Origin: Octopus vulgaris
Lineage: Eukaryota
Assembly: GCA_951406725.2 (NCBI GenBank)
Contig: OX597821.1
Span: forward strand, 868,001 to 932,000
Length of the DNA: 64,000 nucleotides
Direction: 5' to 3'
The notes under the pieces were generated by a model. The model searched no databases. It saw only the letters and a list, made by a program, of their open reading frames with translations, and was not told the origin of the DNA. Both the position numbers and the translations under genes were made by a program. Positions 9,215 to 63,878 of the stretch are shown piece after piece (within the stretch, counting starts at the first letter, position 1; the number at the start of each line of letters is the position of its first letter).

Positions 9215-9408
9215 CTCTAAATAATGGACCAGTTTCTAGAGATAATAATAATAATAATAATAATAAAACTGATGTGATGAGGATGGAGCTTCTAGAGATC
9301 CTGAAAAATATTTGGAGCTTAAGTTCTATATTTAAGAGATGAGGAATTATGTACATTATTTACATTATTTACATTTGATGGATTTTTGTCCTCATCTTGT
9401 TTGTTGTT

Positions 9409-9454
9409 AACACAACGTTTCGGCTGATATACCCTCCAGCCTTCATCAGGTGTC
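9409..9454 (-). ncRNA. minimal type I hammerhead ribozyme-like motif
   Basis: Minus strand reads GACAC-CUGAUGA-A-GGCUG(GAGGGUAUAU)CAGCC-GAAAC-GUU-GUGUU. Stems I and II pair; stem III is a loopless ACGU palindrome. Confidence 0.65.
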
Positions 9455-9602
9455 TTGGGGAAATTTCGGATCTGGGTTCTCATTCCTAAGGTATTTTTCA
9501 ATGTTATCATTATTATTATTATTATTCAGGTCACAGCTTAGAATCAAATAATAACATTGAAAAATACCTTAGGAATGAGAACCCAGGTTCAAAATTTCCC
9601 AA

Positions 9603-9648
9603 GACACCTGATGAAGGCTTGAGGGTATATCAGCCGAAACGTTGTGTT
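9603..9648 (+). ncRNA. minimal type I hammerhead ribozyme-like motif
   Basis: GACAC-CTGATGA-A-GGCT...AGCC-GAAAC-GTT-GTGTT; inverted partner of 9409-9454. Confidence 0.6.
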
Positions 9649-9702
9649 AACAACAAACAAGATGAGGACAAATATCCGTTGAATGTAAATAATGTAAATT
9701 AA

Positions 9703-55277: not shown

Positions 55278-55338
55278 CCACCGTCATCAGCTGTCGCTAG
55301 TTAGCTCAGGCGTGTTTCGAAGGCAAGACAGGACACTC
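55278..55338 (-). ncRNA. pseudoknotted (strand-permuted) hammerhead ribozyme candidate, diverged relative
   Basis: Minus strand: GAGUGU-C|CUGUC-uug-CCUUC-GAA-ACACGC-(14 nt)-GACAG-CUGAUGA-C-GGUGG; cleavage triplet GUC. Confidence 0.6.
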
Positions 55339-55807
55339 GTTACTAGGCCTTCCTGCGAGAGAATTAAAATAAAATTCCAAGCAGCGGGGTAAAACGGGTA
55401 AGAACACAAACAGGACGTAACAAAAAAAAAAAAATACAAGACGAGAAATAAAACGAGAATACAATACGGGAAATCAAACAAACATGCATACTTGTAAAAG
55501 TATGCATGTATGTTTGTATGTATGCCTGCACAAATACGCACAGAAGCATACATAAATGGTAGATAGATGAATGCATGCGTGTGTGTATATTTCTGTCCTG
55601 CTTACTTGTTATTGTTTTTCAGAGTTCGTAGTAAAACCCACGCCTCAGAGCGACGTGCGATGCTACAGGGACAAAAAAGGAACCCGACGAGTGTTAAATG
55701 AATCAAGAACAGTCATCGCTGTTCTTTCTTTTAGTTAAGCCAACCAGATGTTATCAAGAAGCCTCTGGGACGAGATGTCACGCGGGAGAAGGGGAGGGGC
55801 AGTGGAA

Positions 55808-63788: not shown

Positions 63789-63878
63789 TCGACTATAAGT
63801 TCGAAGATTCGACATAGTTGTCTTCATCAGTCGGTCTGACAAAGGTAATTGAACCGAAATGTCGAACTCACAGTAGAC
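63789..63878. mobile_element. divergently oriented pair of degenerate hammerhead-bearing Penelope-type fragments
   Basis: Minus strand CUGAUGA-A-GACA(ACUA)UGUC-GAA-UCUUC-GAACUUAUAGU; plus strand CUGACAA-A-GGU(AAUUGA)ACC-GAAAU-GUC-GAACUCACAGU. Confidence 0.45.

Follow-up and report, generated by a model that had tools for sequence, protein, structure and literature searches.

What is encoded on the minus strand at positions 55338-55278 of the 64,000-nt stretch of the Octopus vulgaris genome analysed here (the window; G000:C8:868001-932000 of a 2.8-Gb assembly in 227 contigs), and does its transcript cut itself? Read 5' to 3', this segment runs GAGUGUC, CUGUC, UUG, CCUUC-GAA-ACACGC, a 14-nt linker and then GACAG-CUGAUGA-C-GGUGG, letter for letter as given in an earlier note on this DNA, which took it for a permuted hammerhead ribozyme, the second and more diverged of two in the window. 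On the basis of sequence comparison, it is quite probable that the segment belongs to a hammerhead-type fold with an opened core, lying in the 3' region of a repeat that is likely of the Naiad type and inserted into (TA)n, and that the RNA is likely to cut itself after C 55332.

The motif in the window

The predicted cut lies between 55332 and 55331, where it had been placed before; C17 is 55332 and closes a GUC triplet at the end of the stem III 3' strand (GUGU with C17, 55332-55336). Beyond it, all on the minus strand, come the stem I strand CUGUC (55327-55331), a block at 55312-55324 made up of the stem II 3' strand GCCUUC, the GAAA box (55318-55315) and the stem III 5' strand ACAC, and finally the other stem I strand, GACAG, with the CUGAUGA box (55284-55295). 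These assignments come from the sequence and the family consensuses described below, joined in the case of the cut by a pile-up of truncated copies.

A descriptor made of the core boxes, the NUH triplet, and stems I and III of at least 4 bp each finds three sites in the window (55290, 42617 and 36571), against 0.01 per dinucleotide shuffle; with an upstream stem II of at least 5 bp added, the same three sites are found, and none in 300 shuffles. The motif around 36571 (minus strand, 36552-36690, core 36571-36565; from sequence and consensuses) has the same layout, with lesions in P5 and P4. That around 42617 (minus strand, 42598-42736, core 42617-42611; from sequence and descriptor) is not an independent copy, since it lies within a local 5.5-kb duplication of the 36.5-kb region that is 97.5% identical to it. 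This direct duplication covers 35965-41428 and 42034-47479, with a short N run near 41430-41530, and is either a recent tandem duplication or an assembly artefact. The differences reported earlier from 36560-36622 are all present: stem III is CUUAU/AUAAG there and GUGU/ACAC here, the first stem I pair U-A there and C-G here, and the triplet AUA there and GUC here. The two motifs are not one locus diverged, but belong to two different transposon families, that at 36.5 kb to family B and that at 55 kb to the separate family A.

That short words came together by accident, in a genome so rich in repeats, would be in keeping with an Rfam scan of 55200-55450 that yields no hammerhead model at E up to 10 (SscA alone matches, at E 6.8), and with a folded segment no more stable than its shuffles (z 0.36, by nested folding, with pseudoknots outside the model). 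Chance is nevertheless hardly credible in view of the 0 in 300 shuffles, of covariation in four helices, and of the genome-wide abundance of the core pattern TCGAAA-N16-28-CTGANGANGG, which has 11,311 matches against 104 for a reversed control (109-fold). In the Rfam scan of the whole window, all of the best 150 of 181 matches are miRNA families on simple or inverted repeats.

The window holds several other features. At 9358-9699 there is an inverted repeat with a minimal type I hammerhead in each arm (cores at 9608 on the plus and 9449 on the minus strand); both are conventional, have a palindromic stem III and are of the kind described for the pseudo-LTRs of canonical Penelope-like elements. 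At 63830 on the minus strand, a 3-bp hairpin and GAA come after a CUGAUGA box; this may be a hammerhead of the conventional kind that has decayed. A broken Helitron-like RepHel remnant lies at 32463-34459 on the plus strand, with 33077-33928 matching the PIF1 helicase family at E 5e-51.

Stem II and the opening of the core

The earlier reading formed stem II from CCUUC and GGUGG, the bases that follow CUGAUGA almost directly. A perfect 6-bp stem II is available further out, beyond the coordinates then considered: GAAGGC at 55352-55347 (G10.1 = 55352) pairs with GCCUUC at 55324-55319, with a helix energy of -12.1 kcal/mol against -1.0 for the uninterrupted downstream run of 2 bp. The strand before GAAA probably pairs with this upstream strand, and the stem II drawn first is probably wrong. 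The segment 55278-55338 thus lies wholly inside the motif but does not mark its start, which is some 50 nt further upstream because the partner strands of stem II and P5 lie there.

Pairing and covariation show the strand order, 5' to 3', to be P5a, the P6 hairpin, IIa, P4a, IIIb-NUH, the cut, Ib, IIb-GAAA-IIIa, P4b, Ia-CUGANGA and P5b. On the minus strand of the window, the P5 5' strand CCCCG is at 55385-55389 and pairs with the bases directly 3' of CUGAUGA (consensuses, fold and copies). The P6 hairpin, at 55353-55384, is closed by CUGC/GCAG and has no spacer to either P5 or stem II (consensuses, MFE and centroid folds), and it is followed by the stem II 5' strand at 55347-55352 (consensuses, fold and 17-copy alignment). 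P4, the helix joining stems I and II, has its 5' strand at 55342-55346 and its 3' strand at 55297-55301, one base 5' of stem I (both from the family consensuses). The P5 3' strand, CGG(U)GG at 55278-55283 (consensuses, fold and alignments), is the very strand that had been assigned to stem II. P5, P6 and the upstream stem II are all present in the nested MFE and centroid folds.

Clustering of 334 segments from sampled loci gave eight families, of 53, 41, 24, 19, 19, 11, 6 and 3 members, and the consensuses of all eight keep every stem by compensatory change. The upstream stem II is paired in 40/40 cells, stem I in 40/40, stem III in 32/32 and P4 in 37/40, counts reached by 0 of 20,000 column shuffles, though five of the eight families are mutually related, which inflates these tests and overstates independence. 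In 8/8 families the catalytic boxes (whose pattern was part of the sampling) persist together with the NUH and A15.1-U16.1 while the stems turn over, and G10.1-C11.1 is invariant. The NUH triplets seen are GUC, GUU, GUA, AUA and AUC. P6 abuts stem II without a spacer in 8/8 families, and P5 abuts both P6 and A9 in 6/8. In family A, P5 is short (3 bp + 2), and in families C and F4 it ends in mismatches; the first P5 pair, between the base after A9 and the base just before P6, is U-A in 35 of 47 copies, G-C in 7 and unpaired in 5. P4 has 9 bp in family A and 5 bp in the window copy. The small cluster F16 did not parse to this layout, and the small cluster F10 has, by eye, no clean 10.1-11.1 pair.

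In an alignment of 17 natural copies of related families, 90.9% of the cells are paired, against 37-48% for slid controls, and 13/19 pairs change on both sides. Families C and F4, which MAFFT misaligned, were left out of it, and three family B rows are shifted at block S, which lowers the counts for stems I and III. P4 covaries in 4/6 pairs, and A15.1-U16.1 is U-A in 17/17 copies. Selection on the structure, argued before from two copies, is borne out far beyond these by the eight consensuses and the 17 copies.

The 17 copies also bear on which stem II is the real one. If the first drawing were right, this would be a plain type-SGC hammerhead, and the upstream strands would form an alternative, inhibitory fold, an off-switch for cleavage. 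The downstream stem II can certainly be drawn: its first two pairs, a G-C and a G-U, hold in 17/17 of the A-like copies, 77.6% of its cells are paired, and its covariation score of 0.19 is reached by 0/500 shuffles; only 1/5 of its pairs covary, however, and sliding its register by 3 columns gives better pairing (88.2%), as against 97.6% of cells paired and 3/5 pairs covarying for the upstream stem II. In family C its uninterrupted run amounts to 1 bp, in F1 and F4 to 2 bp, weak contiguous pairing being possible in the A-like families only. In the published Naiad sequences from Acropora, a cubozoan, an acanthocephalan and a crustacean (by eye, in the part of PMC8557442 used), it cannot form, while the upstream strand makes a perfect 5-6 bp from G10.1. 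The existence in HRIMA-1, the known type-SGC ribozyme, of one extra base before a contiguous stem II (PMC10085705, in part) lends some colour to the first drawing, as does the switch-like way in which both strands of the downstream stem II are sequestered by upstream partners; P4a, on the other hand, directly follows the upstream strand, just as in HRIMA-1 stem II leads into the contact helix. A plain type-SGC hammerhead with an off-switch thus seems decidedly unlikely, and the description below is that of the fold with the upstream stem II.

Relationship to known hammerheads

With the upstream strand in stem II, the motif has the CUGANGA and GAAA boxes, an NUH triplet with A15.1-U16.1 as the closing pair of stem III, and stems I-III with G10.1-C11.1. 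It departs from types I-III, with their circular order and nested three-way junction, in having its blocks in the order S-G-C; as a non-circularly permuted hammerhead-type fold, with its boxes, stems I and III and GUC, the first description stands. Eckert et al. 2023 (PMC10085705, in part) described two such types, SGC (HRIMA-1) and CSG, from metatranscriptomes and metagenomes; both cleave in vitro, and just two CSG examples are given in the part used. They enumerated six permutations, assuming that CUGAnGA is contiguous with a stem II strand. In HRIMA-1 the strands follow one another cyclically as IIIb-Ib-IIb-IIIa-P4b-Ia-core-IIa-P4a, and CUGAUGA is followed by a single extra U. The window motif shares with these types the core boxes, the S-G-C block order and the cyclic strand order, as well as the short linker between the strands of stems I and II, the insertion point after A9, and a P4 that joins the distal sides of stems I and II, a tertiary contact at the same position as the contact helix of HRIMA-1. 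It is unlike them in one respect: where CUGAnGA and the stem II strand are contiguous in types SGC and CSG, with at most 1-2 inserted bases, CUGAUGA and the stem II strand here lie at either end of the motif, separated by about 60 nt and joined through P5 and P6. The layout is that of a type-SGC/CSG ring in which the three outer linkers have been closed and the chain opened through P5, between A9 and G10.1.

The geometry of the hammerhead requires that A9-G12 stack on G10.1-C11.1. Because of this, P5 and P6 would be expected to stack on each other and to join A9/G10.1 as the second arm of a four-way junction, which would sit at a step that in HRIMA-1 and other Penelope hammerheads holds a single extra base. 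Canonical Penelope hammerheads keep one base between positions 9 and 10.1 (PMC4209133, in part), and the core insertions listed in the part of Perreault 2011 used here (PMC3088659), some of them harmful, include none of the two-helix type.

Cervera and de la Pena (2014, PMC4209133, in part) described type I or minimal hammerheads in canonical Penelope-like elements, within the pseudo-LTRs, and such hammerheads are likewise known from non-LTR retrozymes (Li, Clavereau and Pollet 2026 preprint, in part); in either setting, as here, their proposed task is to cut precursor RNA. They resemble the window motif in their terminal-repeat position, in the head-to-tail non-coding units, in a conserved G10.1-C11.1 and in having an extra element between 9 and 10.1, but are circularly ordered, have a short palindromic stem III and work as dimers, whereas the window motif has a stem III of 4-6 bp, is multiply pseudoknotted and would act as a monomer. 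The repeats are also unlike non-LTR retrozymes, which are tandem units each with a type I hammerhead: tandems exist, but single copies prevail, and the ribozyme does not belong to type I. No description of this layout, nor of permuted hammerheads in Naiads, was found in the open-licence PMC and bioRxiv literature, and the excerpts of PMC13725137 and PMC10162972 contain nothing on a core-opened layout.

The repeat families

The window motif lies in a 5'-truncated copy of the non-autonomous repeat family A, 395 nt long, at 55090-55484 on the minus strand, delimited by blastn to the unit of tandem locus L012 (86% over 435 columns) and by the tandem spacing. A (TA)n run at 55057-55092 (no strand) stands at the 3' end of the element and is its insertion target, as judged from the sequence and from the TA repeats after other family A copies; such repeats stand at the end of 46/65 copies, an insertion bias for (TA)n. 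Elsewhere the 772-nt unit occurs in tandem copies; it is non-coding, with no ORF over 64 aa from an ATG. The 3' ends of the 65 copies fall mostly into two groups, 35/65 at +200-209 and 17/65 at +291-295, and the 5' ends are variable; with tandems at L012 and L020 and inverted pieces at L014, L018, L026 and L029, family A has the copy structure of Naiads, the short 3' tail included. Contigs from four sequencing runs, presumed to be RNA, cover much of the unit, though their ends are not readable.

At one locus, L011 (G000:C11:55900743-55904000), a copy of another family, F5, stands head-to-tail before a family A unit, a chimera which suggests a shared transposition machinery. In both family A and family B the word GUCCUGU, which resembles the family A cleavage site, is repeated some 80 nt upstream of the cut and at two places downstream of it (in the window, minus strand, at 55417-55410, 55259-55250 and 55197-55189, with matching places in family B). 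These words were considered as extra cleavage sites and set aside, the stem III match being 3-4 bp by eye.

Link to Naiad Penelope-like elements

Craig et al. 2021 (PMC8557442, in part) reported that Naiads target (TA)n and found no canonical hammerhead in them, eight records, including Naiad_Ovul, being flagged as 'HHR_half_core'. The families described here share with those Naiads their (TA)n targets, 5' truncation, and tandem and inverted copies. One of them, F4, agrees with Naiad_Obim and Naiad_Ovul at their 3' ends (by eye, in the same source) and has the same layout as the window motif; it constitutes the 3' terminus of a Penelope-like retroelement of the Naiad clade. By eye, and with part of the 54 published Naiad consensuses covered, the full layout is found in 8 of the 54, from four phyla: Naiad_Obim, Naiad_Ovul, three from Acropora, Naiad_Plae, the entry preceding it (Naiad-2_Movir by file order) and one crustacean. 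The Beroe record fits in part, and no motif was seen by eye in the three oyster Naiads or in the incomplete Naiad_Omin and Naiad_Dcar (PMC8557442, in the part used).

The same collection holds other arrangements. The three oyster Naiads, which have no hammerhead boxes, share another conserved structured motif at the same place. Five nematode records (File S5 of PMC8557442, in part; by eye) carry complete, plain type-CSG hammerheads with a stem I-II contact helix, while spider and horseshoe-crab tails in that file have the S-G-C order with other stem II arrangements, in one of which some 11 bases separate stem II from the core box.

In the octopus, reverse transcriptase (RT) remnants have an F4-type motif downstream on the same strand at 9/30 close and 6/20 distant loci. 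A 292-aa RT stretch at L352 matches RVT_1 at E 2e-4 (21.5 bits, below the Pfam cut-off of 29.6) and RT-bearing Atlas clusters; a 173-aa RT fragment at L114 matched no Pfam family and no longer homolog, with a weak maturase match at E 0.7. The A-type motif is absent from these 30 close and 20 distant RT loci within flanks of 1.5 to 3.8 kb, which makes this a weak miss, and unit A has no similarity to the one Naiad tail compared, that of L114. Family A thus differs from the published Naiads in being a 772-nt non-coding unit with no match to that tail. Because neither an A-type autonomous partner nor a match between unit A and L114 was found, family A is tied to Naiads by its ribozyme layout, its target and its copy structure, not by sequence. 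The window element is likely a non-autonomous Naiad-type Penelope-like retroelement with (TA)n insertion.

Truncated copies at the predicted cut

The 5' ends of copies were mapped in three samples, drawn with anchors lying 3' of the cut. Family A is represented by its 65 exact sites in full, family C by 94 of the first 100 listed out of 1,999 sites, and a mixed set by 78/93 sites; the other 15/93 of this set were dropped as having no close reference, and it cannot show ends beyond +12. From -1 to +11 around the cut, 5' ends number 9/702 in family A, against 6/2690 from -60 to -2 (5.7-fold, binomial p 1e-3), 23/839 against 12/2715 in the family C sample (6.2-fold, p 1.5e-7), and 21/842 against 10/2954 in the mixed set (7.4-fold, p 8e-8); the -1..+11 window was picked after the data were seen, and the copies may share parents and need not be independent. 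The best 13-nt window starts at -1 in family A, at 0 in family C and at -1 in the mixed set. Against the rate further downstream, the excess is 2.7-fold in family A (p 0.04) and 6.7-fold in family C (23/839 against 18/4367). Four of the family C copies in the sample start exactly at the cut, and many ends fall between +5 and +12 instead of at 0. The boundaries seen in family C near -130 to -160 arise because subfamilies differ from the reference, and they were excluded as evidence. Microhomology to TA/AT was considered as a cause of the pile-up and rejected, since family A has no TA/AT there and yet has nine events. Taken from genomic copies, the pile-up of truncated ends at the predicted cut is a hint of cleavage in vivo; as more than half of every sample continues beyond the cut, cleavage would be at most partial.

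The fold might also be real and no longer catalytic, serving for binding of the Naiad protein, for recognition of the 3' end, or as a reverse-transcription stop at which truncations cluster. The many ends 5-12 nt past the cut and the extent of read-through would suit such a role; we found no tested precedent for a two-helix core insert, other core insertions lower activity (PMC3088659, in part), and canonical Penelope hammerheads themselves cleave poorly in vitro (PMC4209133, in part). A structural stop, however, would be expected further 3', because a polymerase at Ib has already copied the partners of stem I, stem III and P4, and the 5'-end rate further 3' is lower, with a sharp drop upstream of the cut. 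The keeping of the boxes, the NUH and A15.1-U16.1 in all eight families, with the stems turning over around them, also speaks against a fold that has lost catalysis. Such a fold has, in our judgement, a small though not negligible probability, and the preferred reading is that of a ribozyme which cuts.

Proposed mechanism

On this reading of a cutting ribozyme, the folded RNA would most likely cleave after H17, and once read-through or tandem transcripts were cut, their new 5' end would lie 250-330 nt ahead of the 3' end. The 3' product, which keeps the priming region, might then be reverse-transcribed at (TA)n by the Naiad protein, the presumed mobilising partner; such priming at (TA)n would yield copies whose 5' ends fall on the cut or slightly past it, which is where the pile-up is seen, while uncut or ligated RNAs may give rise to the longer and tandem copies. 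The same model of transposition has been proposed for the canonical Penelope hammerheads (PMC4209133, in part) and for the retrozymes (2026 preprint, in part). The window copy is a truncated insertion that has kept its core but has a P4 of 5 instead of 9 bp, and it is probably passive.

Significance

As far as sequences can tell, we incline, with some reserve, to the broader view that this is a seventh natural hammerhead layout, a type-SGC/CSG ring opened by a four-way junction in its core; that it is the missing ribozyme of many Naiads in molluscs, cnidarians, acanthocephalans and crustaceans; and that it may be active in vivo, setting the 5' edge of short copies and of pseudo-LTRs, its copies in one genome exceeding 10,000 and falling into at least eight families. 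The layout breaks the assumption, on which the six permutations of 2023 were enumerated, that CUGAnGA and stem II are inseparable, and with these two split it has therefore been missed by descriptor and Rfam searches. If the core does tolerate a helical junction at A9/G10.1, ribozyme engineering would gain a new site for sensors. For the Penelope-like elements, it would answer a stated puzzle -- that Naiads seem to be without the hammerheads of their relatives -- and the pile-up of truncated copies would serve as a genomic test of a ribozyme's role in transposition. Non-circular hammerheads would thereby move from anonymous environmental RNA into animal chromosomes, and there in high copy number.
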